45,964 nucleotides of DNA, from NCBI GenBank assembly GCA_020072905.1, contig JAIQGB010000060.1, forward strand, positions 1 through 45,964, written 5' to 3'. The DNA comes from Terriglobia bacterium (GTDB lineage Bacteria > Acidobacteriota > Terriglobia > UBA7540). Shown here one piece after another: positions 6,855 through 26,005 of this stretch. The notes under the pieces were generated by a model. It had not been told where the DNA came from and made no database searches. It was given only the letters and a program-made list of their open reading frames with translations. The position numbers and the translations under genes were made by a program. Position 1 is the first letter of the stretch. The number at the start of each line of letters is the position of its first letter.

Positions 6855-6868
6855 TTTGTCAGTTGTCA
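6855..6868. repeat. Tandem heptamer (TTGTCAG)x2 in the leader of the zinc-ribbon/LeuA-family operon
   Basis: Exact tandem duplication read directly from the sequence. The flank TTTTGCTTTGTCA resembles the flank of the array at 19050. Confidence 0.5.
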
Positions 6869-7338
6869 GCCGCTAGCTCTCGGCACCCCGCGCTCCGCCA
6901 GCATTTGCAGGCAGCCAAACCCTGCGAGGCTCTGCCGACTGCCGCAATGTCATTCTACCCAAAAATTCCGCAAGATGTCCAAGACGCAGAAGTGAAGGGC
7001 GTCTCCACTCAGCGTTGGGCTACCGCCCCCCGTTGGAGTCTGAACGAATGCTGGCTATCCGGGCGATCGGGGTACACGGATGCACCTTTCTGACCTGAAC
7101 CCAATTTGTCCCAGGGCGTCAAGCTTGGGCGCTTGTCCCTTCCAGTCGTTGGCCGCTTTTCGAGAAGCCGACTTCTCAGGCACAATCCTGACTTTTTAAG
7201 CTGTTCATAGCGAATCCGGCCTCAACACGACTTTGTGTCCCTTGTGGGACTGAAGCATCAGGTATATATAAGAGCAGTAACCGACCGTCCTTCCCCGCAG
7301 AAATTGGTGTTGTGGTCGGATCGTTGAGGTGGCTACCC

Positions 7339-8136
7339 ATGCGTCGAATCAGATTCTTAAACGGATGCACGTTTCTCTTTCTCCTGATCGCGCCTGGGGT
7401 GTGGGCGAAGGAGCCGCAGCCGAAGGTGTTCGTGTGGCCCGAGTCCGGTCAGCCCGTCGTACGGTTTAAGCTCGGCAAGTTCACGGAAATCGGTTCCTCC
7501 GGGAAACACCACACCTACACAGTGGACGTCACTGCCGAGAATCTCTGGGGCAAGCGGATTCAGAGAGCCACCTTTTACCTTTACCTCTTCGACAAAGATA
7601 AAGCGCGTATCGGAGAAGGCTGGATTTCGATCAAGGACGTCAACCCCGGCGAGACCATTAAATTCCAGATCGGCGCCGGAGCGTCCGGGACTCCCGTAAC
7701 GATGACGCTTGCGCCCGACACGCTACCACTGGAACTGGCTTCATATCTTCCGCCGAGGACAATTTCCGTCACCGTGAACTCGGTGCCACAGGGAGCCGAC
7801 TTGAAAGTTGATGGTGCCGAGGCGGGTGTCACGCCCATGCTGATCCACGTCGGGCCCGGCAAACACACGCAAGAATTCGGCAAGCAGGGATTCAATCCGG
7901 GCCACTTCCCGCTTGAAGTCACATCCGACGAGCTTTCGGGCGGCAGCGTCAGCTACGAGCTGGGCGCGTCCGCGCACGATACGGTGGAACTCCGCGACGG
8001 CACTGTGATGAGCTGTGACGTGGAATCAGTCTCCGCCACCGAACTCGTCGTCCGAGTCGGCGGTGCCGTCCAACACCTCGGCCGGAATCAGGTCAAACGG
8101 ATTTCTCTGGTCCCGCGAGAAACAGCGCCGCAGTAA
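7339..8136 (+). CDS. PEGA domain-containing secreted protein
   Basis: ATG 7339 with GAGGTGG upstream. It has a signal peptide (FLFLLIAPGVWA). The PEGA motif is VNSVPQGADLKVDGAEAGVTPMLIHVGPGKHTQEF. Confidence 0.75.
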   Translation: MRRIRFLNGCTFLFLLIAPGVWAKEPQPKVFVWPESGQPVVRFKLGKFTEIGSSGKHHTYTVDVTAENLWGKRIQRATFYLYLFDKDKARIGEGWISIKDVNPGETIKFQIGAGASGTPVTMTLAPDTLPLELASYLPPRTISVTVNSVPQGADLKVDGAEAGVTPMLIHVGPGKHTQEFGKQGFNPGHFPLEVTSDELSGGSVSYELGASAHDTVELRDGTVMSCDVESVSATELVVRVGGAVQHLGRNQVKRISLVPRETAPQ

Positions 8137-8413
8137 AACCGCAGTCATCTGCGACACGCTCATAGTCTCGCAGGCCCTTCAGGATCGTGGCGAAACTGCC
8201 CCGCCATTCGGTCGCTTGGGATTTCGCCTGATAAACGCCCTTCCCTGACAATGGCCATCTCGTCCCCCCGCACCAAGCGCAAGAGTGCACACGTGGGGAC
8301 CGCTGGGAGGAAGCAAGGCAAGAATCTACCCTTTGGGGGGTGTAGCGTCCTGGCCGGTTGTCTCACTTCAAGCGCCCACACCAGAACTAGATCGGAAAAT
8401 TGCAGAGGGCTCT

Positions 8414-9259
8414 TCAATAAACCACCTTCATTAGGCACAAACCCTGCGCGGGCGCGGTGGGTCCGGCGAGGGTCCGGTCGCGCGCGCCAAGAATCCTCGC
8501 AACGTCTTGCGGGGCGAGTTTCCCTCGCCCGACCTCCATGAGTGTCCCCACCATATTACGCACCATGTGGTGGAGGAAGCCGTTGCCGGTCACCTCGTAC
8601 ACTAACAGGGCTGTACGCGGCCGCCGGAAGAGCCGCGAGGAGAGAATCGTTCGCACCATCTCTCGGTCGCCCCCGCCGCCTGTTACAACTCCGTTCCCTG
8701 CCGTTCGTTTTTCTCGCATCATTCTGAATTCTGACTTCTGGCTTCTGACTTCCCTCTCCTTGCCCGGTTCCTCTTCGCCAGATGTTGCCGCAAACGACGT
8801 GAAATCGTGCTCCCCCTCGAAGAGCCGGGCCGCTTGCGCCATGCGCTCGTGGTCGAGCGGAAAAGGATGGTGGCAGACAAACCTCCACAGAAAGGGGGAA
8901 CAAACCGGCGCCTGGAGAATGCGATACCGGTACGTTTTGGAGCGTGCGTCGTAGCGGGCGTGGAAGTTCTCCGCGACTTCGCGCGCGACTTTGATGCGGA
9001 CTGTCGGTGGGAGCAGGTTGTTCAAGGCCTTGGCGAGGTTTTCGCAGGGAATCGGACTGGCGATTTTGAAGTTCGCCACCTGATTGAGGGCGTGCACACC
9101 GGCATCGGTGCGGCCCGAACCCCAAACATGGACGGGTTTGCCCGTCAGGCGCGCGATGGCCGTCTCCAGGCACTCCTGGACCGTCAGCAAATCGGGCTGC
9201 CGCTGCCAGCCGTGAAAGTCCGTCCCGTCGTAGGCAAGCACCAGCCGGACGTTGCGCAT
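8414..9259 (-). CDS. truA: tRNA pseudouridine(38-40) synthase TruA, carrying an approx. 35-aa in-frame insertion
   Basis: Motifs: LAYDGT.FHGWQRQ, the catalytic GRTDAGVHA, and FLHHMVRNMVG. The segment between FTSF and the R-x-I strand is about 35 residues longer than in classical TruA and is encoded partly by a heptamer array. Confidence 0.9.
   Translation of the reverse strand: MRNVRLVLAYDGTDFHGWQRQPDLLTVQECLETAIARLTGKPVHVWGSGRTDAGVHALNQVANFKIASPIPCENLAKALNNLLPPTVRIKVAREVAENFHARYDARSKTYRYRILQAPVCSPFLWRFVCHHPFPLDHERMAQAARLFEGEHDFTSFAATSGEEEPGKEREVRSQKSEFRMMREKRTAGNGVVTGGGGDREMVRTILSSRLFRRPRTALLVYEVTGNGFLHHMVRNMVGTLMEVGRGKLAPQDVARILGARDRTLAGPTAPAQGLCLMKVVY
8721..8752. repeat. Heptamer array A1 (plus strand ATTCTGA ATTCTGA CTTCTGG CTTCTGA CTTC; reverse complement is the (CAGAAGT)n family) inside truA
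   Basis: Period-7 tandem words read directly. Same family as 23717-23740 and 25892-25922. Confidence 0.8.
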
Positions 9260-9689
9260 AGGCCGTTGCCTGAGGATGCAGCCAGAGGGAGTAAATACGC
9301 GCTGCTCGGTGTTGTCAAGCCGCAGGATGCGAGAACTGGTGAGGCTCTTCGGTCGGGTGGGCGCGAGTCCGCCGTGTGTCCGATTTCGAACAGGGCAATC
9401 CCAAACGCGGGCAGAGGGTCGTTTCGCCGGCCACCCCAGTGGCGCTAAGCAATTGATAATACAGCCACAAATCTGGACCCGGTTGGCAGACGCATTGCGG
9501 TGTACTGCATCCCTGAGGTGGAGACCTATGGGGCAATTTTACACAATCCTTGGTACAGCCCGCCGGATGCCAGCCTGCCAACGAAGCGCTCTTGCCCGGC
9601 GAACCGGAGGGCTTGTTCCAAACCGACCGAAGGCTGACACGTCGAAACATCCAGGACGCACCGAGACAATCGTTAGAGAGGACCTCACC

Positions 9690-10832
9690 ATGGAAGCCGC
9701 TAGTTCAGAATCGCCGCGGGTCCTGATCGCCGACGACCAGCACTCCGTCAGGGAGGCCCTGCGCCTGCTGCTCAAGACGGCGGGATATCAGGCCGAGGGT
9801 GTTTCGTCTCCCCAGGCGGCACTGACCGCGCTCGAAAACGACTCTTTCGACGCCCTCCTGCTCGACCTGAATTATTCCCGGGACACGACCTCCGGGGCCG
9901 AAGGGCTGGACCTCCTCTCGCGGATTCAGGCCCTCGACCGGAATCTTCCCGTGGTCGTCATGACGGCCTGGGGCAACATGGAACTGGCCGTCCAGGCCAT
10001 GCAACGCGGCGCCGTGGACTTCATCCTCAAGCCCTGGGAAAACGCGCGCGTCCTGGCATGCCTCCAAACCCAAATCGGGCGGCGCGCGACGGCGCGAGAC
10101 CAGCGCCAGCGACTCGAAGAGGAATTCCGCGAAGCTCGGCGGGTGCAGGAACGCCTGATGATGGAGGAGATTCCGCAATTTGCCGGGCTCGAAGTTGCAG
10201 CGGTCTGGCAGCCAGCGCGCATGGTGGGTGGCGACTACTGCGACGTCCTCAAGTTCACCGAGACGACGGCGGGCATCTGCATCGCGGACGTAGCCGGAAA
10301 GGGCATTCCTGCCGCGCTGCTCATGTCGAACGTGCAGGCGGCGGTGCGTACGCTGGCCTCCCCAACCTGCGAGCCGCGCGAATTGTGCGCGCAACTGAAC
10401 CAGATCCTCTGCCAGAACACTTCCGCCGAAAAATTCGTAACCCTGTTCTACGGGTTGATCGATACGAAAGCAAAGAAGCTGGTCTATTGCAATGCCGGGC
10501 ACGTCGCGCCACGCCTGCTCCGGCCCGACGGTTCCCTGCTCCGGCTCGAAGCGGGAGGCCCGGTGCTCGGGGAGTTCATCCGCTGGCAAGCCACGCAGGG
10601 CGAGGTGGACCTCCCGAGCGGCGCCCGCCTGCTTTGCGTCACGGACGGCATTCTCGAGGCGGCGGACTCACAGGGCGACGAATTCGGCGACGCCCGGCTG
10701 GACGATCTGTTGGCGTCGAAACCCGGCCTCAGCGCCGAGGCCCTCCGCGACCGTGTAATGCGCGCTGCCGCCGAGCACTGCGGCGGCCAGTTCGACGACG
10801 ACGCGACCGTACTGGCCCTGGGCCTCCGCTGA
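9690..10832 (+). CDS. Response regulator receiver fused to a PP2C/SpoIIE-type phosphatase (RsbU-like)
   Basis: ATG 9690 preceded by GAGAGGA. The REC domain shows VLIADDQ..DLNY..VVMTAWG..KPW. The PP2C/SpoIIE domain shows GGDYCDV..IADVAGKGIPAALLM..TDGILEA. The ORF-track upstream extension (from 9252) has no homology. Confidence 0.85.
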   Translation: MEAASSESPRVLIADDQHSVREALRLLLKTAGYQAEGVSSPQAALTALENDSFDALLLDLNYSRDTTSGAEGLDLLSRIQALDRNLPVVVMTAWGNMELAVQAMQRGAVDFILKPWENARVLACLQTQIGRRATARDQRQRLEEEFREARRVQERLMMEEIPQFAGLEVAAVWQPARMVGGDYCDVLKFTETTAGICIADVAGKGIPAALLMSNVQAAVRTLASPTCEPRELCAQLNQILCQNTSAEKFVTLFYGLIDTKAKKLVYCNAGHVAPRLLRPDGSLLRLEAGGPVLGEFIRWQATQGEVDLPSGARLLCVTDGILEAADSQGDEFGDARLDDLLASKPGLSAEALRDRVMRAAAEHCGGQFDDDATVLALGLR

Positions 10833-10890
10833 CGTTTTGTTGTGACGCTGATTGTCCCTCTATCGCGGACGCGGACCGGAGGAACGAATC

Positions 10891-11048
10891 TAGCGATTGG
10901 GTGATCGGGTAATTGAGAGATTGAGTGATTTTGCGATCGTGAAATCCCGTGATCACGGGATTTGGGACAGAGAGTTCTGATTTGACCGGTCAGGGACGGA
11001 GCTATTTCAATCGCTAAATCACCTGATCGCTCAATCACTCAATCACTG
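10891..11048. repeat. MITE-like palindromic element: 5 octamer words, core, 5 octamer words in inverted orientation
   Basis: Left arm 10891-10930 is TAGCGATT GGGTGATC GGGTAATT GAGAGATT GAGTGATT. Right arm 11009-11048 is AATCGCTA AATCACCT GATCGCTC AATCACTC AATCACTG. The arms are about 27/40 complementary. A perfect 22-bp palindrome, AAATCCCGTGATCACGGGATTT, sits at 10942-10963. Confidence 0.7.
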
Positions 11049-11075
11049 CTTCAGGATGCAAAATACGGCCTGCGC

Positions 11076-13583
11076 ATGCTGGCCAAGAATCCCGGCTTCA
11101 CCACCGTGGCGGTCATCACGCTGGCCCTCGGCACCGGCGCGAACACCGCGATCTTCACCTTGCTGAACGCAGCGATGCTCAAGTCTCTGCCCGTAGCAAA
11201 TCCTGAGCAACTCTACCGCCTCGGTGACACTAACAATTGCTGCGTTATGACCGGAACTCAGGGCAGCTTTGTTCTCTACTCGTATCCGCTCTACGAGGAA
11301 CTCCGCGATCACACGCCAGAATTCAGCGAACTTGCCGCCCTCACGCCCTTCCTAACGGACCTGAGCATCCGCCGCAGCGGCGCCTCCGGACCTGCTGAAC
11401 CCTACCAAGGCGAATTTGTCTCCGCAAATTACTTCGCGATGTTTGGCATCGGTGGTTTTGCCGGACGCACCCTCACATCAGCCGACGACACGCCGGAGGC
11501 ACCACCGGTCGCGGTGATGAATTATCACACTTGGCAGCGGCATTTCGGCCTCGACCCCTCTGTCATCGGTTCTACCTTCAACATCAACGGCATCGCCTGC
11601 ACGCTGGCGGGCGTTGCGCCGCCAGGTTTCTACGGTGACACTCTGCGCAGCGACCCGCCGGATTTCTGGCTTCCACTCGGCACAGAGCCAGCCCTAAATC
11701 GACAAGACAGCCGATTGCACAGTTCAGAACTTGAATGGCTCTATCTCATCGGACGCCTGCGGCCGGGCGTCAAGGTCGTTCAGGCGCAGTCCCACCTGAC
11801 GGTCGAGCTCCAACAGGCGCTGTGGCAAGCAGGCTTGGCCAGCGCCACACCGGAACAGCGCAACGATGTCGCTTTGGTAGAAGCGGCCAGACAAGAAATC
11901 GCCCGGCAACATATCCGGCTCACACCTGCCGCGAGCGGAGTGGACCGGATGCAGACTGGGTACGCTGCAGGCTTAAGACTGCTGGTGATCCTCTCGGGCC
12001 TGGTGCTGCTGATCACCTGCGCCAATATCGCCAATTTGCTAGTGGCGCGCGGCACTGCAAGCCGCTTGCAGACAGCTATTCGGGTGGCGCTTGGCGCACC
12101 GCGAGGGCGACTCGTGCGCCAGATGCTGACCGAAAGCGTGCTGCTGGCACTGCTTGGCGGAGGGGCGGGGCTGTATCTTGCCTATGCGGGGACTCGCGCC
12201 ATCCTGCTCGTCGCTTTCCGCGGAGCACACTATGTCCCCATCAGCGCCAGCCCTTCCCCTCTGGTGCTCGCCTTCGCTTTCCTGCTCTCGCTCGTTACCG
12301 GGATTGTCTTCGGCATAGCGCCCGCGTGGATCGCGTCGCATTCCGATCCCGCCGACGCCCTGCGCGGCGCTGGCCGCTCCACCCGCGACCGCTCCTCGCT
12401 AGTGCGCCGGTCTCTGGTGGTCCTCCAAGTGGCTCTCTCGCTCGTACTCCTGGCTGCCGCGGGCTTGCTAACGAAAAGTTTGCGCAATCTCCATGAGCAG
12501 CAGTTTGGTTTCGAGACTCAAGGCCGTCTGATAGTCAAGGTCGATCCCGCCCTCTCTGGTTACACGGTCGCTCGTCGCGTGGGCCTCTACCGCAAGCTTC
12601 AGCAGAGGCTCGAACAGACCCCTGGCGTGCTCAGTGCCAGTCTCTCTGGGTACAGCCCCATGGAGGGCCAAAACTGGAATGAGGACGTTTACATCGAAGG
12701 GCGTACGCCTGCAAACAATTCCGGCCGGGATCAAAACAGCTCTTTGGACCGCGTCGGCGCACATTACTTTGAGACCATCGGAACTCGACTGCTGCGTGGC
12801 CGACTCATCGGCGACCAGGATGCCCTTGGGTCGCTCCACGAGGCCGTCATCAATCGAACCTTCGCTCAAAAGTTCTTCCCCGGCGAGGACCCGATTGGCC
12901 AACACTTCGGCATTGGGGACCCTCGTCACAGCGGGGATTATGAAATCGTGGGCATCGTCGAAGACGCGAAATATCAGAATGCGCGGGAGCCCGCGTACCC
13001 CACGGCTTTCCTCCCGCTGTTGGTAACGCCTTCAGAAGCGGCGGACATTCACGATATTGAGTTGCGCGTAGCCGGCAAGCCGGAGAATCTCGAGCGCGCC
13101 GTGCGCCGCGCTGTGTCCGACATTGACCCAAACCTGACGGTGCTTGACATGATGAGCTTCGCCGAGCAGGTCGCCCGCAATTTCAATCAGGACCGTCTGA
13201 TCGCGCGACTCACCGAGTTCTTCGGCTTGTTGGCGCTCGTCCTTGCTTGCGTCGGCCTCTACGGTCTGACCGCTTACTCCGTGGCACGCCGGACCAACGA
13301 AATCGGCATTCGCATGACGCTCGGGGCTAATCGCAGAAACATCGCTGGCCTGGTGCTGCGCGGCGTATTCAAGCAAGTGATCTTGGGTTTGGCCATCGGT
13401 ATGCCCGTGGCCCTGGTGGGCGGGCGGTTGCTTTCCAGTGAGCTCTTCGGCGTCAAAAGCCACGACCCGCTCATTCTTGGCTTGACAGCCGCTATTCTGG
13501 CCGCCTGTGGGCTTGTGGCCGGATTCATCCCCGCGCGCCGGGCGACCAAGGTCGATCCCCTGGTGGCGCTGCGCTACGAGTAG
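11076..13583 (+). CDS. ADOP-family duplicated ABC-type permease (MacB/FtsX-like, two FtsX halves)
   Basis: It has the N-terminal KNPGFT..TLALGIGANTAIF-type motif, a duplicated MacB_PCD/FtsX architecture, and a C-terminal ..ARRATKVDPLVALRYE. The start is uncertain: the conserved LLQDAKYGLR segment is encoded in-frame upstream of ATG 11076 with no canonical start codon. Confidence 0.85.
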   Translation: MLAKNPGFTTVAVITLALGTGANTAIFTLLNAAMLKSLPVANPEQLYRLGDTNNCCVMTGTQGSFVLYSYPLYEELRDHTPEFSELAALTPFLTDLSIRRSGASGPAEPYQGEFVSANYFAMFGIGGFAGRTLTSADDTPEAPPVAVMNYHTWQRHFGLDPSVIGSTFNINGIACTLAGVAPPGFYGDTLRSDPPDFWLPLGTEPALNRQDSRLHSSELEWLYLIGRLRPGVKVVQAQSHLTVELQQALWQAGLASATPEQRNDVALVEAARQEIARQHIRLTPAASGVDRMQTGYAAGLRLLVILSGLVLLITCANIANLLVARGTASRLQTAIRVALGAPRGRLVRQMLTESVLLALLGGGAGLYLAYAGTRAILLVAFRGAHYVPISASPSPLVLAFAFLLSLVTGIVFGIAPAWIASHSDPADALRGAGRSTRDRSSLVRRSLVVLQVALSLVLLAAAGLLTKSLRNLHEQQFGFETQGRLIVKVDPALSGYTVARRVGLYRKLQQRLEQTPGVLSASLSGYSPMEGQNWNEDVYIEGRTPANNSGRDQNSSLDRVGAHYFETIGTRLLRGRLIGDQDALGSLHEAVINRTFAQKFFPGEDPIGQHFGIGDPRHSGDYEIVGIVEDAKYQNAREPAYPTAFLPLLVTPSEAADIHDIELRVAGKPENLERAVRRAVSDIDPNLTVLDMMSFAEQVARNFNQDRLIARLTEFFGLLALVLACVGLYGLTAYSVARRTNEIGIRMTLGANRRNIAGLVLRGVFKQVILGLAIGMPVALVGGRLLSSELFGVKSHDPLILGLTAAILAACGLVAGFIPARRATKVDPLVALRYE

Positions 13584-17188: not shown

Positions 17189-18907
17189 ATGAGCAAAGGA
17201 AACAGGGCAGGCATCGATCTCGAGACGCGGAAATTGAAATCCCCGGAACGCAGGCCGTCTGAGGCTGCAATCCGCTGGGAGCGCGATACCCTTACTCCCT
17301 CACTCGAAAAGTCTCCAGAACGCCGGAATTCATTTACATCTCTCTCTGGCGCCCCTGTCGAACGCCTCTACACGCCCGCCGATCTCGCCGAATTCGATTA
17401 CGCCCGCGACCTCGCCGATCCCGGCGAGTTCCCTTTCACCCGCGGCATCCACCGCACGATGTATCGCGGCCGAACTTGGACGATGCGCCAGTTCGCTGGC
17501 TTCGGAACGCCCGAGGACACCAACCGGCGTCTCCACTATCTCCTCAAACAGGGCCAAACGGGACTGTCCATCGCCTTCGACCTGCCCACGCTGATGGGCT
17601 ACGACAGCGACCATCCGCTCGCCGAAGGAGAAGTGGGCAAGTGCGGCGTCGCAGTCTCGTCCCTCGCCGACATGGAAACGCTGCTCGCCGGCTTGCCTCT
17701 CGAGCAGGTCACGACTTCCATGACCATCAATTCGCCCGCGGCCATGATCTGGGCGATGTACCTGGTCGCCGGGCAGAAAAACGGCGCCGATTGGAAGAAG
17801 ATTTCGGGAACCACCCAAAATGACATTCTGAAGGAGTATATCGCCCAGAAGGAGTACATCTTTCCGCCCCGGCCTTCCATGCGCCTGGTCGTGGATACCA
17901 TCACCTTTGGTGCGCGCGAGGTGCCTCGCTGGAATCCCATCTCCATCAGCGGGTATCACATCCGCGAGGCGGGCTCGACAGCCGTGCAGGAACTCGCCTT
18001 CACGCTCCGCGACGGGATCGAGTACGTGGAGTGGGTGGTGCGCACGGGCATGGACGTGGACGAGTTTGCGCCGCGCCTCAGTTTTTTCTTCAACGCCCAC
18101 AACGACCTCTTCGAAGAGATCGCCAAGTATCGGGCGGCCCGCAAGATCTGGGCGCGGGTGATGCGCGAGCGTTTCGGCGCTGAGAATCCGCGCTCCTGGC
18201 TCTGCCGTTTCCACACCCAGACGGCGGGTTGCTCGCTCACCGCCCAGCAGCCGTACAACAACGTGATCCGCACCACGATTCAGGCGCTCGCGGCCGTCCT
18301 GGGCGGGACTCAGTCACTGCACACCAACTCGCTTGACGAAGCCTGGGCGCTGCCCACCGAGCAGGCCGTCACGCTGGCGCTGCGCACCCAGCAGGTACTC
18401 GCCCACGAGACCGGTCTCGTAAACACAGTGGACCCGCTTGCCGGCTCCTACTTCGTCGAGAAGCTCACGCTTGACACCGAGCGCGCGTGCTACGAATACT
18501 TCGACAAGATCGACGCGCTGGGCGGAATGGTCGCCGCCATCGAGCGCGGCTATCCCCAAAAGGAAATCCATGACGCCGCCTACGCCTATCAGCAGGCAGT
18601 CGAGCGCGGGGAGAGGATCATCGTGGGCGTGAACGAGTTTGTCTCCGAAGAGAAACATCCCATCGAGATCTTGGTCATCGACGAAAACGTAGCTCGCCGC
18701 CAACTCCAGAAACTCGCCGACTTGCGGGAGAGTCGCGACAACGCTCGGGTACAGTCAGCGCTCGCGGCGCTCGCGAGCGCGGCTGGAACCGAGCAGAATC
18801 TGATGCCTTACATCCTCGAGTCCGTGCGCGCCTACGCCACGGTTGGTGAAATGTGCGACGTGCTGCGGGGCGTGTTCGGAACGTACGAAGAGCCGGCGTT
18901 TCGTTAA
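17189..18907 (+). CDS. Methylmalonyl-CoA mutase-family large (catalytic TIM-barrel) subunit, split type
   Basis: Motifs: [66 protein letters not shown]. There is no fused B12-binding domain. Substrate specificity was not resolved by eye. Confidence 0.9.
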
Positions 18908-18926: not shown

Positions 18927-19028
18927 GGGATGAAGAAAGGATGAAGGATGAAGTATGAAGGCTGAAACAAATCCGTAGACAGCAGACTCCGGAGCCCCTT
19001 TTCATCCTTCAGCCTTCATCCTTCATCC
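18927..19028. repeat. Heptamer-array hairpin B ((GGATGAA)n left arm, (TTCATCC)n right arm)
   Basis: Left arm 18939-18966 is GGATGAA GGATGAA GTATGAA GGCTGAA. Right arm 19001-19028 is TTCATCC TTCAGCC TTCATCC TTCATCC. The outer 15 bp are perfectly complementary and about 25/28 pair overall. The loop is 34 nt. Confidence 0.8.
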
Positions 19029-19049
19029 TGCCGCTTTTGCTTTTTGCTT

Positions 19050-19070
19050 GTCACTCGTCACTGGTCACTT
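19050..19070. repeat. Heptamer array E1 (GTCACTC GTCACTG GTCACTT)
   Basis: Period-7 words read directly, ending 8 nt upstream of the B12-subunit ATG. A reverse-complement copy lies at 22046-22066. Confidence 0.75.
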
Positions 19071-19078: not shown

Positions 19079-19498
19079 ATGGCCGATCGTAGAATCCGCG
19101 TCCTAGTTGCCAAGCCCGGCCTCGACGGCCACGACCGGGGGGCGAAGATCATCGCCCGCGCCCTCCGCGACGCCGGCATGGAGGTTATCTACACGGGCCT
19201 CCGCCAAACGCCGGAGGCAATCGTTACCGCCGCCCTCCAGGAGGATGTGGACGCCATTGGCATCTCGATCCTCTCGGGCGCCCACAACACCATCGTGCCT
19301 CGCATCACGGAGCTGATGCGCGCGCAGGGGCTCGCCGGCGTGCTGCTCCTTGTGGGCGGGATCATCCCCGACGAAGACATTGCCAGCCTCAAGAAAGCGG
19401 GTGTGAACGAAGTCTTTCAGCCCGGGGCGTCGACGCAGGAGATTATCGACTACATCCGCTCGCACGTGAGGAGAGCCACAGCCACCGAAACAAAGTGA
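19079..19498 (+). CDS. Cobalamin-binding small subunit of the split mutase (MCM C-terminal domain-like)
   Basis: It contains the DxHxxG B12-binding motif in [15 protein letters not shown] Rossmann-like fold follows ([18 protein letters not shown]). I chose ATG 19079; the upstream ORF-track residues (HSSLVTST) are translated repeat. Confidence 0.9.
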
Positions 19499-19503
19499 GA
19501 ATG

Positions 19504-19605
19504 GTGAATAGCGAATTGTGAACGCCGAATCGCGTCATGCGGACAAGCAGGAAACTAGGGCAAGCGCTGCGCACCTTTCATAATTCGCAATTCACTATTC
19601 ACTAT
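19504..19605. repeat. Heptamer-array hairpin C ((GTGAATA)n left arm, (TATTCAC)n right arm)
   Basis: Left arm 19504-19531 is GTGAATA GCGAATT GTGAACG CCGAATC. Right arm 19582-19605 is AATTCGC AATTCAC TATTCAC TAT. Positions 19504-19522 pair with 19584-19602 at 17/19 plus one G-T. The element starts 6 nt after the B12-subunit stop. Confidence 0.8.
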
Positions 19606-19616: not shown

Positions 19617-20222
19617 TTGGAACTCTATTCGCACAATTCGGCCGCCGTCCTTACCTTCCCACCAGGGGAAGGGTACCCTCGGCTGACGCGTGCCGTCCTG
19701 GTGGAGCTTGTCAATATCCTAAATATCATCGAACGCGATAAGGTCTTTCACGGCATCGTCATCGCCGCGCATGGCGAATCTTTTGCCACCGGCGCCGACG
19801 TCGAGGAGATCGTCAAACTCAGGGGCATTGGCGCGCAGGAGTTCGCGCGCGCCGGGCAGGCTGTCTTCGAAAAGATCGCGCGCTTCCCTCTTCCCGTTGT
19901 CGCCGCCGTCCGCGGCTATTGCCTGGGCGGAGGGCTGGACTTGGCGCTGGCCTGCCACGCCCGCGTCGCAACGTATGACGCTTCATTCGGCCATCCGGGT
20001 GCTGCACTTGGCCTCCTGACAGGCTGGGGAGGTACGCAGCGACTGCCACGCCTGATTGGCAAGGCGCAGGCGCTGCATATGCTCCTCACTGGCGACCGGG
20101 TTCCGGCGACTCAGGCGCTGACGCTGGGCATGGTTGATGAACTCGTGCCCTCGGAAGACTTGATCGCTGCCGCGGCCCGCCGCGCGGCCCGCAGTGAAAC
20201 CCGCTCATTTTGCAACTGGTGA
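19617..20222 (+). CDS. Short enoyl-CoA hydratase/isomerase (crotonase-fold) protein
   Basis: TTG start. Crotonase motifs: FATGADVEEI, VAAVRGYCLGGGLDLALACH, and the oxyanion region GHPGAALGLLTGWGGTQRLPRLIG. At 201 aa it lacks the usual C-terminal helices. Confidence 0.75.
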   Translation: MELYSHNSAAVLTFPPGEGYPRLTRAVLVELVNILNIIERDKVFHGIVIAAHGESFATGADVEEIVKLRGIGAQEFARAGQAVFEKIARFPLPVVAAVRGYCLGGGLDLALACHARVATYDASFGHPGAALGLLTGWGGTQRLPRLIGKAQALHMLLTGDRVPATQALTLGMVDELVPSEDLIAAAARRAARSETRSFCNW

Positions 20223-20228: not shown

Positions 20229-20513
20229 ATGACCTCGGAGAAGCTCGTCTTCCGCGCCCACGCCCTCCGTCGGATGTTCCGGCGTGGCATCGGCCTCGAC
20301 GAGGTCCACCAGGCTCTCTCCACAGGCGAAACCATCGAAAGCTATCCGCAGGATATCCCTTACCCCAGCCGCTTGGTGCTAGGATGGTCGGGGAACCGAG
20401 CACTCCATATCGTTACGGCCGACAACACCGAGGATCGAGAGACCATCGTAATCACAGTGTATGAGCCGGACCCTGCCCTTTGGAATACCGACTTCAGAAG
20501 GAGGAAGCCGTGA
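20229..20513 (+). CDS. DUF4258-like small toxin candidate
   Basis: 94 aa. The pattern F..HA..RM..RGI...EV......G..IE.YP.D.P.P..L.LG....+.LH.V.A........VITVY.P....W matches my memory of DUF4258. Its stop overlaps the next start (GTGA). Confidence 0.7.
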   Translation: MTSEKLVFRAHALRRMFRRGIGLDEVHQALSTGETIESYPQDIPYPSRLVLGWSGNRALHIVTADNTEDRETIVITVYEPDPALWNTDFRRRKP

Positions 20514-20737
20514 TCTGTATCATCTGTAAACAGGCACACACCCGAAACGGGAAAGCGACGGTTACCCTCGAGCGAGGCGCGACTACGATTATCGTCAAGG
20601 GCGTCCCCGCTCGCATTTGCCCCAATTGCGGCGAGGAATACGTCGAAGAGGATATTTCTGCTGAGCTATTGAAAAGCGCAGAAGCCGCCGCGAAGTCAGG
20701 GGTGCAGGTGGACATCAGAGAATACGTTGTGGCGTAG
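20510..20737 (+). CDS. YgiT-type (MqsA N-terminal-like) zinc-finger antitoxin candidate, no HTH domain
   Basis: GTG 20510 preceded by AGGAGGAAGCC. Two CxxC knuckles (CIICKQ ... CPNCGEEY) flank the VTLERG..IIVKGVPARIC pattern. It is 75 aa and overlaps the toxin stop by 4 nt. Confidence 0.7.
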   Translation: MICIICKQAHTRNGKATVTLERGATTIIVKGVPARICPNCGEEYVEEDISAELLKSAEAAAKSGVQVDIREYVVA

Positions 20738-20769
20738 GCACCCGCTGAGATTCTGCGCAAGGAGGGCGC

Positions 20770-22044
20770 ATGCGACCCGTCTACATGATTTCCGGTGGGA
20801 TCACGAAATTCTCCAAGGCGAATCCGCGCCAAAGCTTTCGCCTGATGGTGAAGGAATCCTTCGACTACGCGCTGCGCGATGTGCCCAAGCTCCGCCGCGA
20901 GATGATTGACGGCAGCGTGGTCTCGTATTTTTCCGACCATTTCACCCGGCAGTTGATGGCCGGAATCATGGCGACGGATTTTCTGGGCCTTTGTCCGCGG
21001 CCGAACAAGCGCATCGAGGGTGGCGGCGCCACGGGCGGGCTCTGCTTTCAGGCGGCGTGGGAAGCGGTGGCTTCCGGCCGCATGGACGTCTGCGTGGCGT
21101 ACGGCTTCGAGACCATGTCACACGTGAACACCTGGAAGGGCAATGAGTTCATCGCGCTCGCCTCGGACACGAACTTCGATTATCCCGTCGGCGGCTTCTA
21201 CAGCGGCTATTACGCCATGATGGTGGTTCGCCACATGTACGAGTTCGGGACCACGGTCGAACAACTCGCCATGGTCTCGGTGAAGAATCACAAGAACGCG
21301 CTGCACAATGTCTGGGCACAGAAACACCTCGACCTCACAATTGAAGATGTGCGGAACTCGCCCATGGTCGCCTATCCGCTCACCATGCTCGATATTTGCA
21401 CGATGTCGGACGGCGCGGCGTGCTGCATCCTGGCCTCGGAGAAGGTCGCCGAAAAAGTCTGCCCCCATCCTGTGAAAATCACCGGCATCGGCACGGGCAC
21501 GGACGCCATGCGCATGTCCGACCGCCCGCACGGCGAGGTCCTTTTGCTCAAACACGAAGACCCGAGCTGGTACAAGAACTTGAAATATCCCGGCGTGCAT
21601 TCCTTCCGTGCCGGCCGCAACGCCGCCCGGCTCGCCTACGAGCACGCTGGGATCCAGAACCCGATCGAGGATCTGGATTTCATCGAATTGCACGACGCTT
21701 ACACGTCGTCGGAGATTCAGACTTACGAGGACCTCGGCCTGTGCCGTTACGGCGAGGGCGGAAAATTCATCGAAACGGGCGCGTCGGCATTGGACGGCAA
21801 ACTTCCCGTCAACCCTTCGGGCGGGTTGATTGCCTGCGGCCATCCCGTCGGCGCCACGGGACTGATGCAAGCGGTCTTCGCCTTTTGGCAGTTGCAGGGC
21901 AGCATCGCCAAGCACAACAACGGTGACGGCAAGATTCAAGTGAAGCCCAAGAAAAAATCACGGCCCATGCGCGGGCTGATTCATTCCCACGCCGGCACGG
22001 GGACGTATGTGACCGTGAGCATCATGGAGCGGACGAGCAAGTAA
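20770..22044 (+). CDS. Thiolase-like protein (SCPx/nonspecific lipid-transfer-type thiolase that partners with DUF35 proteins)
   Basis: ATG preceded by AAGGAGGG. Thiolase-fold motifs: GGGATGGLCF, DICTMSDGAACCILASE, ELHDAYTSSE, NPSGGLIACGHPVGATG. Confidence 0.85.
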   Translation: MRPVYMISGGITKFSKANPRQSFRLMVKESFDYALRDVPKLRREMIDGSVVSYFSDHFTRQLMAGIMATDFLGLCPRPNKRIEGGGATGGLCFQAAWEAVASGRMDVCVAYGFETMSHVNTWKGNEFIALASDTNFDYPVGGFYSGYYAMMVVRHMYEFGTTVEQLAMVSVKNHKNALHNVWAQKHLDLTIEDVRNSPMVAYPLTMLDICTMSDGAACCILASEKVAEKVCPHPVKITGIGTGTDAMRMSDRPHGEVLLLKHEDPSWYKNLKYPGVHSFRAGRNAARLAYEHAGIQNPIEDLDFIELHDAYTSSEIQTYEDLGLCRYGEGGKFIETGASALDGKLPVNPSGGLIACGHPVGATGLMQAVFAFWQLQGSIAKHNNGDGKIQVKPKKKSRPMRGLIHSHAGTGTYVTVSIMERTSK

Positions 22045-22045
22045 C

Positions 22046-22066
22046 GAGTGACACGTGACGAGTGAG
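22046..22066. repeat. Heptamer array E2 (GAGTGAC ACGTGAC GAGTGAG), reverse complement of family E
   Basis: Read directly. It begins 2 nt after the thiolase stop codon and contains the GTG start (22055) of the next ORF. Confidence 0.75.
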
Positions 22067-22536: not shown

Positions 22537-22553
22537 CAGATCAGGAGGCCCAA

Positions 22554-23117
22554 GTGGCAGACAAGAAACCTGTGCGAACCAGTTCAACGAAGCTTGGCAC
22601 CAAGCCCGAGTGGGACAAGCTCCGGCTGCCGGAGACGGACCAGGGCACGGTGGTCTTCAACACCGACCCGCTCATCCTCAAGAACCACTACGAGATCGAT
22701 TACCTCCACAGCTACGCCGAGGATTCGCCGTTCTTCGTCGGCCTGTCGCAGGGGAAGCTGTTGGGCAGCGAATGTACGAAGTGCCATTACCGATACGCAA
22801 CACCGCGCGCCTACTGCATGGAGTGCGGGAAGAAAACCAGATGGATCGAACTGCCGCTGGAAGGCAAAGTCCACACCTGGACCACGTGTTACTTCGGGTC
22901 AGAAGCCTTCCTCAAGGAGACGCCCTTCAATCTGGTGCTGGTCGAATTCGCGGGCGTCAATACTTTGTTTCTCGCGCGCCTGATCGGCGCCAAGCAGGAA
23001 GAAATGCGCGTGAGCATGAAGGTTCGCGCGCAATTTCGGCGCAACTCCAAGTTCGATCCCACCGATGTCTACTTCGTCCCCTCCGAGCCGGTCACGCCGC
23101 GCGAGGGCGCGGCCTAG
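22554..23117 (+). CDS. DUF35 Zn-ribbon/OB-fold protein (thiolase partner)
   Basis: GTG 22554 preceded by AGGAGG. The rubredoxin-like CTKCHYRYATPRAYCMECG is followed by an OB-fold (GKVHTWTTCYFG..FNLVLVEF). Confidence 0.8.
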   Translation: MADKKPVRTSSTKLGTKPEWDKLRLPETDQGTVVFNTDPLILKNHYEIDYLHSYAEDSPFFVGLSQGKLLGSECTKCHYRYATPRAYCMECGKKTRWIELPLEGKVHTWTTCYFGSEAFLKETPFNLVLVEFAGVNTLFLARLIGAKQEEMRVSMKVRAQFRRNSKFDPTDVYFVPSEPVTPREGAA

Positions 23118-23267
23118 AGCGGGTCCACAGAATAGACCAAGTGCGCAGAACCTGCCTGTGTGCTTTCCCAATCTCTCCTGTTTGACCCCGCGGTTGCTCA
23201 TAGTTTGCGGAATCGCCCTTTTGCTATAGACTGTCCCGCGGCGTCTGCTGAACCGGAGACCCTGACG

Positions 23268-23714
23268 ATGAATCCGCAACCACACACGGATTGGGCCAGC
23301 ACGACCTTTCGTGTCCGCTATGCCGAGACGGATCAGATGGGTGTGGTCTACTACGCGAACTACTTCGTGTGGTTTGAGATCGGGCGCACGGATTTTTGCC
23401 GCCAGCACGGGTTCGCCTATCGGGACATGGAGAAGGAAGACGGCTTGTGCATCATCGTGGCCGAAGCGCGCTGTCGGTTCAAGGCCCCGGCGAGATACGA
23501 TGACGAAATCGAGGTGCGGACCGCTCTGCGCGACATGCGCCGGCGCGTGCTGACGTTCGTTTACGAGGTCTACCGCAAATCTGATGAGACGTTGCTGGCA
23601 GAAGGCGAGACGGTCCACGTCATCACCGATCTAAACGGGCGCCCGCGCGCCTTGCCGGAGAAATATCGGGAGTTGCTGAAGGTAGGGGCGGAAGCGAATC
23701 GTGGACGCGGTTAG
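23268..23714 (+). CDS. YbgC/4HBT-family acyl-CoA thioesterase
   Basis: Hotdog-fold motif FRVRYAETDQMGVVYYANYFVWFEIGRTDF and ..CRFKAPARYDDEIEVRT. ATG 23268. Confidence 0.85.
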   Translation: MNPQPHTDWASTTFRVRYAETDQMGVVYYANYFVWFEIGRTDFCRQHGFAYRDMEKEDGLCIIVAEARCRFKAPARYDDEIEVRTALRDMRRRVLTFVYEVYRKSDETLLAEGETVHVITDLNGRPRALPEKYRELLKVGAEANRGRG

Positions 23715-23716
23715 GA

Positions 23717-23740
23717 CAGAAGTCAGGAGCCAGAAGTCAG
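23717..23740. repeat. Heptamer array A2 (CAGAAGT CAGGAGC CAGAAGT CAG)
   Basis: Read directly. It starts 3 nt after the thioesterase stop and lies 23 nt upstream of the hutH ATG. Confidence 0.8.
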
Positions 23741-23762
23741 ACGCAAGACCCCGAAGAAGTCA

Positions 23763-25277
23763 ATGCCAGATGCAATTCTTCTTACCGGACAAAGTCTGAC
23801 GCGCAAGGAATTCTGCGCGGTGGTTCTCCAAGGCCGTCGTGTCGGGCTCCACCGGCGCGCCCGAATTGCCATGCGGCAATCGCGCGCGCTGGTCGAGAAG
23901 CTCATTGCTCAGAAGAAAGTCGTCTATGGCGTTTCGACGGGTTTCGGAGCGCTCTCCACCGAACGCGTCGAGCCGGCTCAGGCGCGCCAACTGCAATTGA
24001 ACCTTGTGCGCAGCCACGCCTGCGGAGTCGGCGAGCCCCTCAGCGAAGCGGAAACACGTGGAGTGCTCCTGCTCCGCGCCAACGCCCTGGCGCGCGGCCT
24101 TTCGGGTGTAAGACCGCTGGTGGTGGAATTGCTCTGCGATTTTCTGAACGCCGGCGTCCATCCCCTGATTCCTGCCAAGGGCTCAGTGGGAGCGAGCGGC
24201 GACCTCGCACCACTCGCCCATGTGGCGCTGGCGCTCGTCGGAGAGGGTGAAGTCATCTTCCGCGGCCGCCGGCTCGCCGCTTCAAAAGCCTTGAGAGCCA
24301 TCGGCCGGAAACCTCTCGTCCTCGAAGCCAAAGAGGGCTTGGCGCTCCTGAACGGCACTCAGGCAATGCTTTCTCTCGGACTCCTGGCGTTGCGGGAGGC
24401 AGAAATCCTTGTGGGTACGGCCGACGTGGCCGGTGCGCTCTCGCTCGACGCGCTGCGCGGCTCGCCCGCGGCATTTGACGAACGCTTGCAGCAGGCGCGC
24501 CCTCACCCCGGGCAAATCATCACGGCGCGGAACCTTCTCCGCCTGAACCACGGCAGCGGCATTCGCAAGTCCCACCGGGATTGCGCGCGCGTGCAGGATG
24601 CTTACAGCTTGCGCTGTATGCCGCAAGTTCACGGGGCGGTGCGCGATGCGCTGGCCTACGCCGTGCGGGTTCTCGAGATCGAGATGAACAGCGCTACAGA
24701 CAACCCCCTGGTCTTCGCCGATGACGGCGAAGTGATCTCCGGAGGAAATTTCCACGGCCAGCCGCTTGCCACCGCACTCGATTTGATGGCCATTGCGCTC
24801 ACGCAACTCGCCGGGATTTCCGAGCGGCGCATCGATCGTCTGGTCAATCCGCTCACCTCCGAACTGCCGGCGTTCCTTACGCGCGGTCATGGTTTGGAGT
24901 CGGGTTTCATGCTGGCGCAGGTTACGGCCGCGGCGCTGGCCTCGGAGAATAAGATCTTCGCGCATCCCGCGTCGGTGGATTCCATTCCAACTTCCGGGAA
25001 CAAGGAAGACTATGTCAGCATGGGGATGACGGCGGCCCTGAAGCTGCGGCCCATTCTTGCCAACGTGCGCACGGTGCTGGCGATTGAGCTTCTCGCCGCG
25101 TGCCAGGCCCTGGACCTTCTTGCCCCCCTGCGCAGCGGCGCGGGGGCGGAGCAAGCGCATGCCTTGGTGCGGCGCGCCTCGCCGTTCGTCAAAGCCGACC
25201 GCCGCCTCGACCGCGATATTGCACGCGTGGCAAGTCTCGTCGAGGCCGGGAAGGTCAGCTCGATCCTGAAGAAGTAG
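23763..25277 (+). CDS. hutH: Histidine ammonia-lyase
   Basis: It contains the MIO-forming GASGDLAPLAH motif. NLVRSHACGVG carries the Ser-His pair typical of HAL rather than PAL/TAL. It is full length at 504 aa. Confidence 0.9.
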   Translation: MPDAILLTGQSLTRKEFCAVVLQGRRVGLHRRARIAMRQSRALVEKLIAQKKVVYGVSTGFGALSTERVEPAQARQLQLNLVRSHACGVGEPLSEAETRGVLLLRANALARGLSGVRPLVVELLCDFLNAGVHPLIPAKGSVGASGDLAPLAHVALALVGEGEVIFRGRRLAASKALRAIGRKPLVLEAKEGLALLNGTQAMLSLGLLALREAEILVGTADVAGALSLDALRGSPAAFDERLQQARPHPGQIITARNLLRLNHGSGIRKSHRDCARVQDAYSLRCMPQVHGAVRDALAYAVRVLEIEMNSATDNPLVFADDGEVISGGNFHGQPLATALDLMAIALTQLAGISERRIDRLVNPLTSELPAFLTRGHGLESGFMLAQVTAAALASENKIFAHPASVDSIPTSGNKEDYVSMGMTAALKLRPILANVRTVLAIELLAACQALDLLAPLRSGAGAEQAHALVRRASPFVKADRRLDRDIARVASLVEAGKVSSILKK

Positions 25278-25291
25278 CATCTTCACTCGCC

Positions 25292-25945
25292 ATGCCCCCC
25301 ATTTCCGCCACGATCATCACGCGCAACGAGGCCGCGCATATTGCGCGCGCCCTCCGTTCCCTCGCCGGCGCGGACGAGATCGTCGTGGTCGATGCGGAAT
25401 CGACGGACGACACGCGCCAAATCGCCGCGGAGATGGGCGCGCGAGTGATCATCCGGCCCTGGGACGGTTTCGCCTCGCAGAAAAACTACGCCGCCGAACA
25501 AGCGCGCCACGACTGGGTTTTGAGCCTCTTCAAGCTCCGGCTGTTCGACCGGCAGCGCGGCCGGTGGGAGGGCGAGTTCGTCCACGAGTCGGTGGCGGTT
25601 TCGGGTCGGGTCGAGACGCTGTCGGGAGAGATCCTGCATTACACCTGCGACTCGCTTAGGGAGCACGGCGAACGAATCGAGTTCTACACCGACCTGGCGG
25701 CCCAGGAGATGTTTGCGCACGGCGAGCGCGTGAGCCTCCTGCGCCGGGGGCTCGCGCCACCCTGGGTGTTCTTTTCCACCTACTTTCTTCGACTCGGCGT
25801 TCTCGATGGGCCGCAGGGATTTCTGATTGCCTGGATGGCGGCACGGTATGTGCAGAGGAAGTATCAGAAGTGGGCACAGCTTCGCGAAGAGCAGAAGTCA
25901 GAAGTCAGGAGCCAGAAGTCAGGGGGGCAAACTCCGGACGTGTGA
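25292..25945 (+). CDS. Family 2 glycosyltransferase (WaaE/KdtX-like) with an apparent in-frame internal deletion removing the DxD region
   Basis: The N-terminus ISATIITRNEA..IVVVDAESTDDT..HDWVLSL joins directly to FKLRLFDRQRGRWEGEFVHE. The expected D-A-D-E motif and about 50 following residues are absent. The C-terminal tail QKSEVRSQKSGG is encoded by heptamer array A3. Confidence 0.7.
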   Translation: MPPISATIITRNEAAHIARALRSLAGADEIVVVDAESTDDTRQIAAEMGARVIIRPWDGFASQKNYAAEQARHDWVLSLFKLRLFDRQRGRWEGEFVHESVAVSGRVETLSGEILHYTCDSLREHGERIEFYTDLAAQEMFAHGERVSLLRRGLAPPWVFFSTYFLRLGVLDGPQGFLIAWMAARYVQRKYQKWAQLREEQKSEVRSQKSGGQTPDV

Positions 25946-25999
25946 GGTCCTCTGCCTGGCTTGCGAGTTTCTAATTTCCAGTTTCCGGTTTCGGCTTTC
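25892..25999. repeat. Heptamer arrays A3 ((CAGAAGT)n, 25892-25922) and G (GAGTTTC TAATTTC CAGTTTC CGGTTTC GGCTTTC, 25965-25999)
   Basis: Period-7 words read directly. The pair spans the GT2 3' end, its stop codon and the spacer to the GT4 gene. Confidence 0.75.
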
Positions 26000-26005
26000 T
26001 CTCGC

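Follow-up and report, generated by a model that had tools for sequence, protein, structure and literature searches.

An excess of tandem heptanucleotide repeats in bacteria has been on record since 1990 (the short tandemly repeated repetitive sequences, STRRs) and 2007 (genome surveys), and the repeats have no accepted origin or function. Here we analyse arrays of this kind in a 45,964-nt stretch of a Terriglobia bacterium genome (assembly GCA_020072905.1, contig JAIQGB010000060.1; hereafter the window), where tandem copies of short words lie around a methylmalonyl-CoA mutase gene cluster, some of them as inverted pairs. The window covers 46 kb of the source genome at a G+C content of 62%. We propose, giving the idea about an even chance of being right, that the paired arrays are the arms of inserted palindromic bracket elements, of which the window holds cargo-less and half-bracket forms.

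The initial annotation of the window, made from the sequence alone, named the STRRs of heterocystous cyanobacteria (Calothrix, Nostoc, Anabaena) as the closest analogue, and the comparison is apt. Both consist of tandem 7-nt units in several unrelated families per genome, dispersed and mainly intergenic, including within operons: the window carries at least seven distinct words in 20 kb, and 89 of the 118 arrays considered below are intergenic or at gene edges. Three heptanucleotide families are described for Calothrix, and a cyanobacterium-like metagenome contig (L192) shows GGGGAGT/CCCCACT units paired with the G-rich arm 5', as in the arrays described here. STRRs were, however, defined on heterocystous cyanobacteria, whereas the window belongs to the Acidobacteriota/Terriglobia and uses other words, and neither the polarity of inverted pairs nor enclosed small genes are reported for STRRs in the portions of the literature consulted. 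Heptanucleotides are reported to be the commonest kind of long simple-sequence repeat in many prokaryotes, with polymerase slippage as the proposed cause (Mrazek 2007, as relayed by PMC4679880 and PMC4692102), and the window likewise has a period-7 excess beyond that expected from composition (7 vs 0.22 arrays). The initial annotation made the phenomenon seem newer than it is: no report of heptanucleotide tandem repeats in Acidobacteria was found in the literature, which is no proof of absence, but a prokaryotic heptanucleotide excess had already been published (Mrazek 2007, via PMC4679880 and PMC4692102).

Two single-word systems are also close. GGGAATC repeats in Xanthomonas vary between close relatives and sometimes stand as inverted pairs able to form stem-loops (PMC4692102), and together with the GGGGAYT repeats of Nostoc they share with the present arrays a heptanucleotide excess, an intergenic bias and variation in length and sequence between close relatives. 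Those studies concern one G-rich word per genus, for which slippage or G-quadruplexes are discussed (PMC4692102), whereas here many non-quadruplex words coexist, inverted pairs outnumber direct neighbours and there is a link to cargo genes. TAACTGA repeats occur sporadically across phyla (marine Beggiatoaceae, cyanobacteria, Bacteroidetes) as two to six heptamer copies before starts, with some inside open reading frames (ORFs), and in Beggiatoaceae the arrays end a few nt before start codons (PMC4679880). They differ in comprising a single word, with 169 direct sets against one indirect (PMC4679880), whereas the window has multiple words and frequent inverted pairs; (TAACTGA)2 has no match in the window at up to two mismatches.

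The paired arrays further recall elements with complementary termini. The 23S rRNA intervening sequence (IVS) of Coxiella is a selfish element: its termini pair into a 28-bp stem, which RNase III cuts in the middle, and its loop holds an S23p gene (PMC4990558). As in the IVSs of Coxiella, Leptospira and Salmonella, the window pairs have complementary termini (arms of 22–30 nt, 86–90%), and in other loci (L024, L010, L021, L205–L213) the loop carries an S23p/23S_rRNA_IVP gene; in contrast to IVSs, which are regarded as horizontally acquired and are excised by RNase III (PMC4990558), the window copies are geneless, sit in mRNA spacers or protein loops rather than in rRNA helices 25 or 45, and have stems built of tandem heptamers. 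Repetitive extragenic palindromes (REPs, with the related BIMEs and REPINs) and miniature inverted-repeat transposable elements (MITEs) are likewise short dispersed non-coding palindromes between genes that form mRNA hairpins and derive from, or depend on, larger elements. The arrays lack the conserved, individually palindromic 20–40 nt unit of REPs, their arms being made of many unrelated words, and no RAYT (IS200/IS605-like) transposase was found among the window ORFs scanned with Pfam. The window pairs form terminal inverted repeats as MITEs do, but without a target-site duplication, and the cargo of the related brackets consists of four-helix-bundle and PD-(D/E)XK proteins rather than known transposases. 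The kind of feature, heptanucleotide repeats and intervening-sequence-type stems, is already known.

All 13 arrays listed by the initial annotation are present, to within about 2 nt, as judged by sequence reading and Tandem Repeats Finder (TRF; Table 1). A strict scan (three copies, at most two mismatches) found 7 period-7 arrays in the window against 0.22 +/- 0.46 in 50 dinucleotide-preserving shuffles, an excess of about 30-fold which marks the arrays as non-random, while the same scan revealed no excess at periods 4–6 or 8–13. Local density is about 12 arrays per 17 kb, to be set beside the 100 or so copies or more per genome that characterise STRRs, and the period-7 TRF rows span 2.1–4.4 copies. 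The two-copy (TTGTCAG)2 lies below the TRF threshold and is therefore indistinguishable from chance. An independent ENA assembly (L204), the only other contig with an identical small-subunit protein, matches the window throughout 763 nt that include five arrays (100% identity), and these are therefore not assembly artefacts. The family A 24-mer CAGAAGTCAGGAGCCAGAAGTCAG occurs in identical form, variant middle unit included, at 23717 (to 23740) and 25899 (to 25922), with a further copy bearing three mismatches at 8731 on the minus strand; shuffled sequence contained none.

In most window arrays, 5' arms and solitary purine-rich arrays start 2–58 nt after stop codons, and 3' arms and solitary pyrimidine-rich arrays end 0–11 nt before starts. 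This agrees with the constant boundary architecture previously claimed for them, but not without exception: array 8721–8752 lies in mid-truA and is translated, array 25892–25922 falls inside the last 18 codons of the ORF for a family 2 glycosyltransferase (GT2), and arrays are also found in divergent promoter regions. Boundary placement is thus partly just a matter of the tolerance of non-coding DNA to insertions. Solitary arrays are unstructured as RNA (z >= 0); for those at 19035–19070 the fold z is +1.2, and no Shine-Dalgarno-like sequence lies between them and ATG 19079.

The earlier impression that many arrays form hairpin-capable inverted pairs holds for three real pairs, and in the window only for these. 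Their arms are complementary over 30 nt at 90% (GGATGAA/TTCATCC), 23 nt at 87% and 22 nt at 86%, and they fold as RNA far better than shuffled sequence: z is -7.7 for the GGATGAA pair (-46.5 kcal/mol; identical in L204), -4.5 for the octamer pair (-53 kcal/mol) and -4.8 for the GTGAATA/TATTCAC pair (-40.4 kcal/mol). The family E arrays at 19050–19070 and 22046–22066, listed by the initial annotation as reverse complements, are 3 kb apart and so cannot form a hairpin. Same-word neighbours at most 700 nt apart are inverted in 57 cases and direct in 5. The pairs fold into stems of about 20–35 bp, and for 18 folded pairs the median is -65.6 kcal/mol. Copy number in one arm does not correlate with that in the other (r = 0.04), and coordinated arm length, as expected under selection on stem length, was rejected on this ground. 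The pairs are not classical terminators, as the initial annotation had held: a terminator consensus scan returned 15 sites against 18.2 expected, none of them at an array, and a U-tract (5 or more T within the next 8 nt) follows none of the 18 folded pairs. An Rfam scan of the whole window at a permissive E-value gave two chance-level matches only, neither at an array, and no rRNA. A rule that arms carry stops in all three frames was also considered; it is true for the GGATGAA, GTGAATA and GATTGAGT arms but false for AGAAGTC, in whose pairs the 5' arm is open and the 3' arm closed in the reading frames.

Table 1. Coordinates of arrays, genes and related cassettes (positions are those of the window unless a locus label is given)
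Feature	Position	Strand	Details	Basis
(TTGTCAG)2	6855-6868		In 485-nt non-coding stretch upstream of minus-strand 93-aa ORF (6545-6826); weakest member	Sequence reading
truA	8414-9259	-		Pfam
75-nt in-frame truA insertion	8671-8752	-	Led by (GAAGTCA)4.4 at 8721-8752; translated ...EVRSQKSEFRM...	
Period-7 array	8722-8752		4.4 copies	TRF
Response regulator with SpoIIE phosphatase domain	9252-10832			Pfam
G-rich 5' arm, GATTGAGT-type octamers	10891-10938	+	About 58 nt past response-regulator/SpoIIE stop	
C-rich 3' arm, AATCACTC-type octamers	11007-11048	+	Abuts permease codons LLQD	
Period-8 arrays	10912-10930; 11007-11047		The second with 69% matches only	TRF
MacB/FtsX-type permease	about 11046-13583			Pfam
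Outer-membrane efflux protein, then gluconolactonase			Between permease and mutase genes	Pfam
Methylmalonyl-CoA mutase large subunit	17189-18907			Pfam
5' arm (GGATGAA)4	18937-18967	+	Between mutase large subunit (stop 18907) and B12-binding small subunit	
3' arm (TTCATCC)4	19000-19029	+	Partner of GGATGAA arm in the same hairpin	
Period-7 arrays	18937-18966; 19001-19029		4.3 and 4.1 copies	TRF
Solitary (TTTTGCT)2 + (GTCACTN)3, pyrimidine-rich	19035-19070	+	End 8 nt before ATG 19079	
B12-binding small subunit	19079-19498			Pfam
5' arm, GTGAATA-type units	19501-19531	+	Starts 2-5 nt after small-subunit stop 19498	
3' arm, TATTCAC-type units	19582-19605	+	Ends 11 nt before TTG 19617 of enoyl-CoA hydratase	
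Enoyl-CoA hydratase	19617-20222		TTG start at 19617	Pfam
DUF4258/YokU-like pair, thiolase-like gene, OB-fold ChsH2-like gene, thioesterase			3' of enoyl-CoA hydratase, in this order	Pfam
Solitary (AGTGACN)3.7	22040-22065	+	Overlaps thiolase-like stop (22042-22044); no significant fold	
Solitary (CAGAAGT)3.4	23717-23740	+	2 nt past thioesterase stop, 22 nt before ATG 23763; unstructured	
Aromatic amino-acid (histidine/phenylalanine) ammonia-lyase	23763-25277		ATG 23763	Pfam
(CAGAAGT)4.4	25892-25922	+	Translated as C-terminal ...EEQKSEVRSQKSGG... of GT2 ORF, stop 25945	
GT2 glycosyltransferase ORF, then GT4 glycosyltransferase			GT2 stop 25945; GT4 from GTG 26006	Pfam
Solitary pyrimidine-rich (NNGTTTC)5	25966-25999	+	Ends 6 nt before GTG 26006 of GT4 glycosyltransferase	
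Further arrays	19035-19049; 19050-19069; 19590-19605; 22040-22065; 25892-25922; 25966-25992			TRF
GxxExxY cassettes	L001:12095-12478; L008, L010, L011, L017, L030, L048, L054, L057		Remnant at L004:11590-11790	
Bracketed four-helix-bundle genes	L024:13878-14342; L010:16590-17080; L021:17190-17760; L205-L213 near position 5000			

Comparison with 80 loci (1.33 Mb) fetched around mutase homologs revealed that the arrays are not confined to the window but recur, patchily, in related Acidobacteriota. Nine period-7 arrays were found in L002 (Terriglobia), nine and eight in L040 and L059 (Pyrinomonadaceae) and six in L054; about ten other loci have a few, and most have none, including the close relatives L003–L005 and nearly all non-Acidobacteriota loci. 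TRF gave 118 period-7 rows for the 80 loci plus the window, 73 of them intergenic and 16 at gene edges, in sequence of which about 82% is coding; the majority of the gene-internal rows are two-copy, G+C-rich chance matches. Words form genome-specific families and recur within single 21-kb loci (AAAGTC and TAAAGG in L002, CTGAT and ACTTAAA in L054, GCTGAC in L040, AGCTAAC in L059); some also recur between classes (GGATGAA, GTGAAT, ACTTCTG, GTTTC).

Presence/absence comparison at orthologous junctions, a check proposed with the initial annotation, uncovered empty sites, different words and differing cassettes. Between the large and small mutase subunits, two solitary arrays accompany the (GGATGAA)4/(TTCATCC)4 hairpin in the window; L002 has a spacer of 14 nt, L003 an array-free spacer of about 190 nt, L001 a complete cassette with a GxxExxY gene, and L004 an internally deleted remnant of that cassette. 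At the small subunit/hydratase junction, the window and L001 carry pairs with related GAAT-containing words and differing loops, L002 has an AGTCGAA-unit pair, the first arm of which encodes the C-terminal end of the small subunit, and L003, L007, L040 and L059 have no arrays. The octamer pair upstream of the permease gene has an orthologous counterpart in L203, a locus that additionally carries (CACTNGT)3 together with a ribosome-binding site and an ordinary ATG start (MSTFLQDVRYGLRMLAKNPGF); the GTCACT word of the window array at 19050 occurs upstream of the L203 permease gene as well. Orthologous arrays at both of these junctions differ between relatives. Relative to L203, the window lacks about 110 nt including the permease start, so that the 3' arm adjoins codons LLQD. 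The conserved N-terminal codons LLQDAKYGLR remain in frame directly after the repeat arm, but in 10983–11078 there is no ATG, GTG or TTG between the in-frame stop at 10983 and the ATG at 11076. This 'ADOP'-like MacB/FtsX-type permease may start at 11076, may use a non-canonical start or may be a damaged gene.

An insertion is also evident within a gene. The 75-nt in-frame insertion in truA, of which 32 nt are array, is shared by the window and L201 and absent from the 256-residue allele of L202 in a DNA alignment. Among Acidobacteriota homologs, the TruA loop that separates HDFTSFAA from MVRxI is anywhere from 12 to 80 residues long (protein alignment; window 8600–8830), and the alignments indicate that the loop after HDFTSFAA is an insertion hot spot in the phylum. 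A segment of the TruA homolog P0116 (SARPVAQALLPVSPLLG...) may resemble translated REP-like palindromes.

In relatives, inverted brackets enclose small genes of two families. A GxxExxY/PD-(D/E)XK gene of about 125 aa (PF13366, E 4.6e-43; TIGR04256) occupies the large/small subunit junction of the mutase in 10 of the 80 loci, framed by two to four copies of CTCTG[CT]G upstream and two to four of C[AG]CAGAG downstream, with spacers of one to three bases and a period of 8–10; these CTCTGYG brackets lack the G-rich-5' polarity described below and were left out of the pooled heptamer pairs. Alongside, the 5' end of the small-subunit gene in L001 is duplicated on both sides of the GxxExxY cassette. 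The second family comprises four-helix-bundle genes of ~120 aa belonging to the 23S_rRNA_IVP family (PF05635, E 6.5e-36; TIGR02436), whose products are weakly similar to the retroelement accessory protein Avd (bAvd and DivGenRetAVD matches). Inverted heptamer brackets enclose these genes in nine of the nine loci inspected, namely L024, L010, L021 and six further loci drawn from a database search that yielded more than 4,700 relatives. The six share the layout stop, (RAGAGTT/AAAGTTG)n, gene, (AACTCTY/AACTTTC)n, next start, and span three junctions (carboxyltransferase/HMG-CoA lyase, M20 peptidase/OPT transporter and S9 peptidase/aminotransferase). No report tying either gene family to flanking repeats was found in the literature, which is no proof of absence.

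The family A word is widespread. A metagenome scan with the pattern AGAAGTCAGNAGNCAGAAGTC matched (AGAAGTC)n in at least 120 contigs of G+C 0.36 to 0.68, a range which implies that several phyla are involved. The contexts include plain pairs, nested multi-word brackets (L085, L098, L099), in-frame insertions in conserved enzymes (L104, L112) and, among the matches listed, four contigs with a four-helix-bundle gene beside the array. In the nested or compound brackets (L085:1150–1260, L098, L099, L096, L206:4826–4956), two or three words stand in mirror order A-B-loop-B'-A', or the upstream arm is doubled, which suggests stepwise, symmetric arm growth. At L090:100–330, (AGAAGTC)n/(GTCTTCT)n hairpin arrays lie, as judged by eye, in the spacers of putative consecutive tRNA genes. 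The word is also present in 73 viral contigs of IMG/VR (L214–L286), mostly as solitary arrays.

An inverted repeat reads alike on both strands, and the order of its arms is therefore a true property of the element. This order is almost invariant: among the matches listed, the partner (GACTTCT)n lies downstream of (AGAAGTC)n in 44 metagenome contigs and upstream in 2, and the G-rich arm is 5' in eight of eight viral pairs, giving 52:2 overall. For other words the 5' arm has more G than C in 27 of 29 pairs (27:2), and all three window pairs have the G-rich arm 5'. Across all arrays, those near the left flank have G in excess of C (50:22) and those near the right flank C in excess of G (61:23; Fisher p = 1.8e-7), a trend which holds where neighbouring genes are tandem or convergent; in divergent spacers the counts are few and mixed. 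Rho avoidance is at most a possible cause of the polarity, as the sense strand of solitary arrays between tandem genes is not C-poor in any consistent way (about 13:9). G-rich synthesis onto the 3' ends at a break and selection against a C-rich arm being transcribed first are both compatible with it.

Of the three roles put forward in the initial annotation, that of non-autonomous mobile elements fits best, given the insertion polymorphism at junctions, the 75-nt truA insertion and the ORF-carrying brackets of relatives; mobility itself we infer from the presence/absence patterns and the dispersal of the arrays. On this account, the arrays would be heptanucleotide, occasionally octanucleotide, simple-sequence repeats belonging to elements that insert at gene boundaries and sometimes into tolerant protein loops. 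A complete element would run from a G-rich array through a loop or small cargo gene to the reverse-complement C-rich array; cargo-less pairs would relate to it as MITEs do to transposons, and solitary arrays would be half-brackets. After insertion, the arms may lengthen or shorten by replication slippage. By analogy with the stem of rRNA intervening sequences, the transcribed stem might serve as an RNase III substrate or as a barrier to 3' exonucleases, which could allow the element to sit between cistrons without polar damage, and any benefit to the host would be secondary.

Several observations weigh against this interpretation. No transposase, target-site duplication or conserved terminus was found, and specifically no duplication was seen at the truA insertion or the flanks of the pairs. 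The window holds no cargo gene of either family by tblastn, and several of the cargo copies elsewhere are orthologous and long conserved, those at the carboxyltransferase/HMG-CoA lyase junction across many Acidoferrales-like genomes, which fits vertical inheritance as well as mobility. Copy number is unchanged in L204, the only near-identical second assembly, so that slippage in the arms is inferred only, and genes of the related loci were called by a heuristic that takes the longest ORFs and filters them on third-position GC. The main weakness is that the cargo brackets examined use other words (AGAGTTG-type, CTCTGYG) than the window (GGATGAA, GTGAATA and GATTGAGT). What connects empty with full brackets is therefore a common architecture and polarity rather than sequence descent, and it is for want of shared sequence that we give the bracket interpretation no more than even standing.

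The arrays could instead be a pure mutational by-product, with polymerase slippage in place favouring 7-nt units and template switching in quasi-palindromes copying the arms, so that nothing moves and nothing is selected. The reported prevalence of heptanucleotides among long repeats, for which slippage was proposed as the cause (Mrazek 2007 via PMC4679880, PMC4692102), agrees with this, as do the very high diversity of words with no common motif, the uncorrelated copy numbers of the arms and the patchy, genome-specific abundance. Left unaccounted for, however, are the identical 24-mers at separate loci, the recurrence of one word at several loci per genome, the more than half of the truA insertion that is not array, the whole bracket-plus-gene units at three junctions, and both the 57:5 excess of inverted neighbours and the near-absolute G-rich-5' polarity. 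We consider this explanation unlikely, if still a serious one.

Somewhat more doubtful is selection for cis-acting RNA elements, whose hairpins would process or stabilise polycistronic mRNA or couple translation, and whose pyrimidine-rich arrays would act as Shine-Dalgarno-independent leaders, for instance as S1 sites. The tight positioning relative to stops and starts argues for such a function, and two pairs are kept at orthologous junctions, with arms still complementary, in relatives at about 80–85% protein identity. Solitary arrays before starts are poor in structure and stand in place of a Shine-Dalgarno sequence, and Beggiatoaceae have TAACTGA arrays in the same placement, with a proposed role in translation (PMC4679880). 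Yet close relatives do with 14 nt or with unrelated sequence at the same junctions, arrays also lie in divergent and convergent spacers and in coding sequence, and arm lengths are uncoordinated; in the window, moreover, the array-associated deletion that removed the permease start codon looks like damage rather than design.

A broader unification strikes us as a long shot: heptamer brackets, STRRs and rRNA intervening sequences would form one unrecognised, cross-phylum mobile class, also found in phage contigs, with arms made at insertion and the cargo participating. The arms would then not be inherited terminal repeats but products of the insertion itself: a G-rich 7-nt unit would be added, in a stuttering manner, to each 3' end of a break, in a geometry resembling that of telomere healing. 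Both kinds of cargo protein, Avd-like four-helix-bundle and PD-(D/E)XK, would be involved in this reaction. If true, this would explain why the same word stands inverted on both arms, why the G-rich strand runs 5' to 3' towards the centre and why words are site-specific.

Binding arrays for a protein with a 7-nt register, whether ring-shaped or built of modular repeats, at operator-like or nucleoid-organising sites, are very improbable. The strict 7-nt periodicity, in which three units equal two turns of B-DNA, and the weak matches relating the cargo four-helix-bundle proteins to nucleic-acid-binding Avd speak for them. Against them, an expectation-maximisation search over the rotations of 154 distinct words reached 2.99 bits compared with 2.62–2.94 for shuffled words, that is, no motif beyond composition, which argues against a single sequence-specific reader and hence against the modular protein suggested by the initial annotation; many unrelated words also stand side by side in one genome, translation into protein segments is tolerated and the window encodes no candidate reader. 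An enrichment of the tetramers CTGA, TGAA and GTCA among the words was too weak to build on. Most improbable of all are unusual, possibly bidirectional, terminators or attenuators that would adjust expression of upstream relative to downstream cistrons, since, for all that the stems are very stable, that canonical terminators no commoner than chance imply another signal ending transcripts in the region, and that some metagenome pairs run into A-rich and T-rich flanks, no array matches the consensus, U-tracts are absent, pairs separate the genes for subunits of a single enzyme and also occur in divergent promoter regions, and solitary arrays have no stem.

As judged from their sequences, the window genes place the genome in the Acidobacteriota: the top identity of the mutase large subunit in a species-level genome collection is 85%, and its best matches are uncultured Acidobacteriota and Terriglobia. 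The arrays all lie between 6.8 and 26 kb, and the other 26 kb of the window has none outside genes. At least ten intergenic spacers of 80–630 nt in 1–6800 and 26000–45964 are free of period-7 arrays, and the one remaining such array, at 32318–32339, falls within a 1063-aa ORF. At 3858–3896, 3.2 copies of the 12-nt unit ACCCATTCCGCC stand in tandem inside a minus-strand ORF (3432–3980) without a Pfam match, probably as a coding tetrapeptide repeat. Between the hydratase and thiolase genes of the operon-like cluster, a toxin-antitoxin-type pair, DUF4258/YokU (MqsA-like), is inserted at 20229–20737, another sign of small selfish cassettes accumulating in the mutase/hydratase cluster.

Three things are, as far as we could find, undescribed: the presence of such repeats in Acidobacteriota, brackets with cargo genes in mRNA spacers, and the polarity rule. 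The repeats are units polymorphic for insertion, and for this phylum we found no earlier report of them. They distort gene calls, as seen in a false C-terminal extension of the GT2 protein, a 25-residue insert in TruA and a permease without a start codon, and they probably break short-read assemblies of genomes from soil metagenomes. The almost absolute G-rich-5' rule is a constraint on any mechanism, and the brackets provide a single architecture that joins the very abundant orphan 23S_rRNA_IVP and GxxExxY genes to rRNA intervening sequences and to STRR-like repeats.

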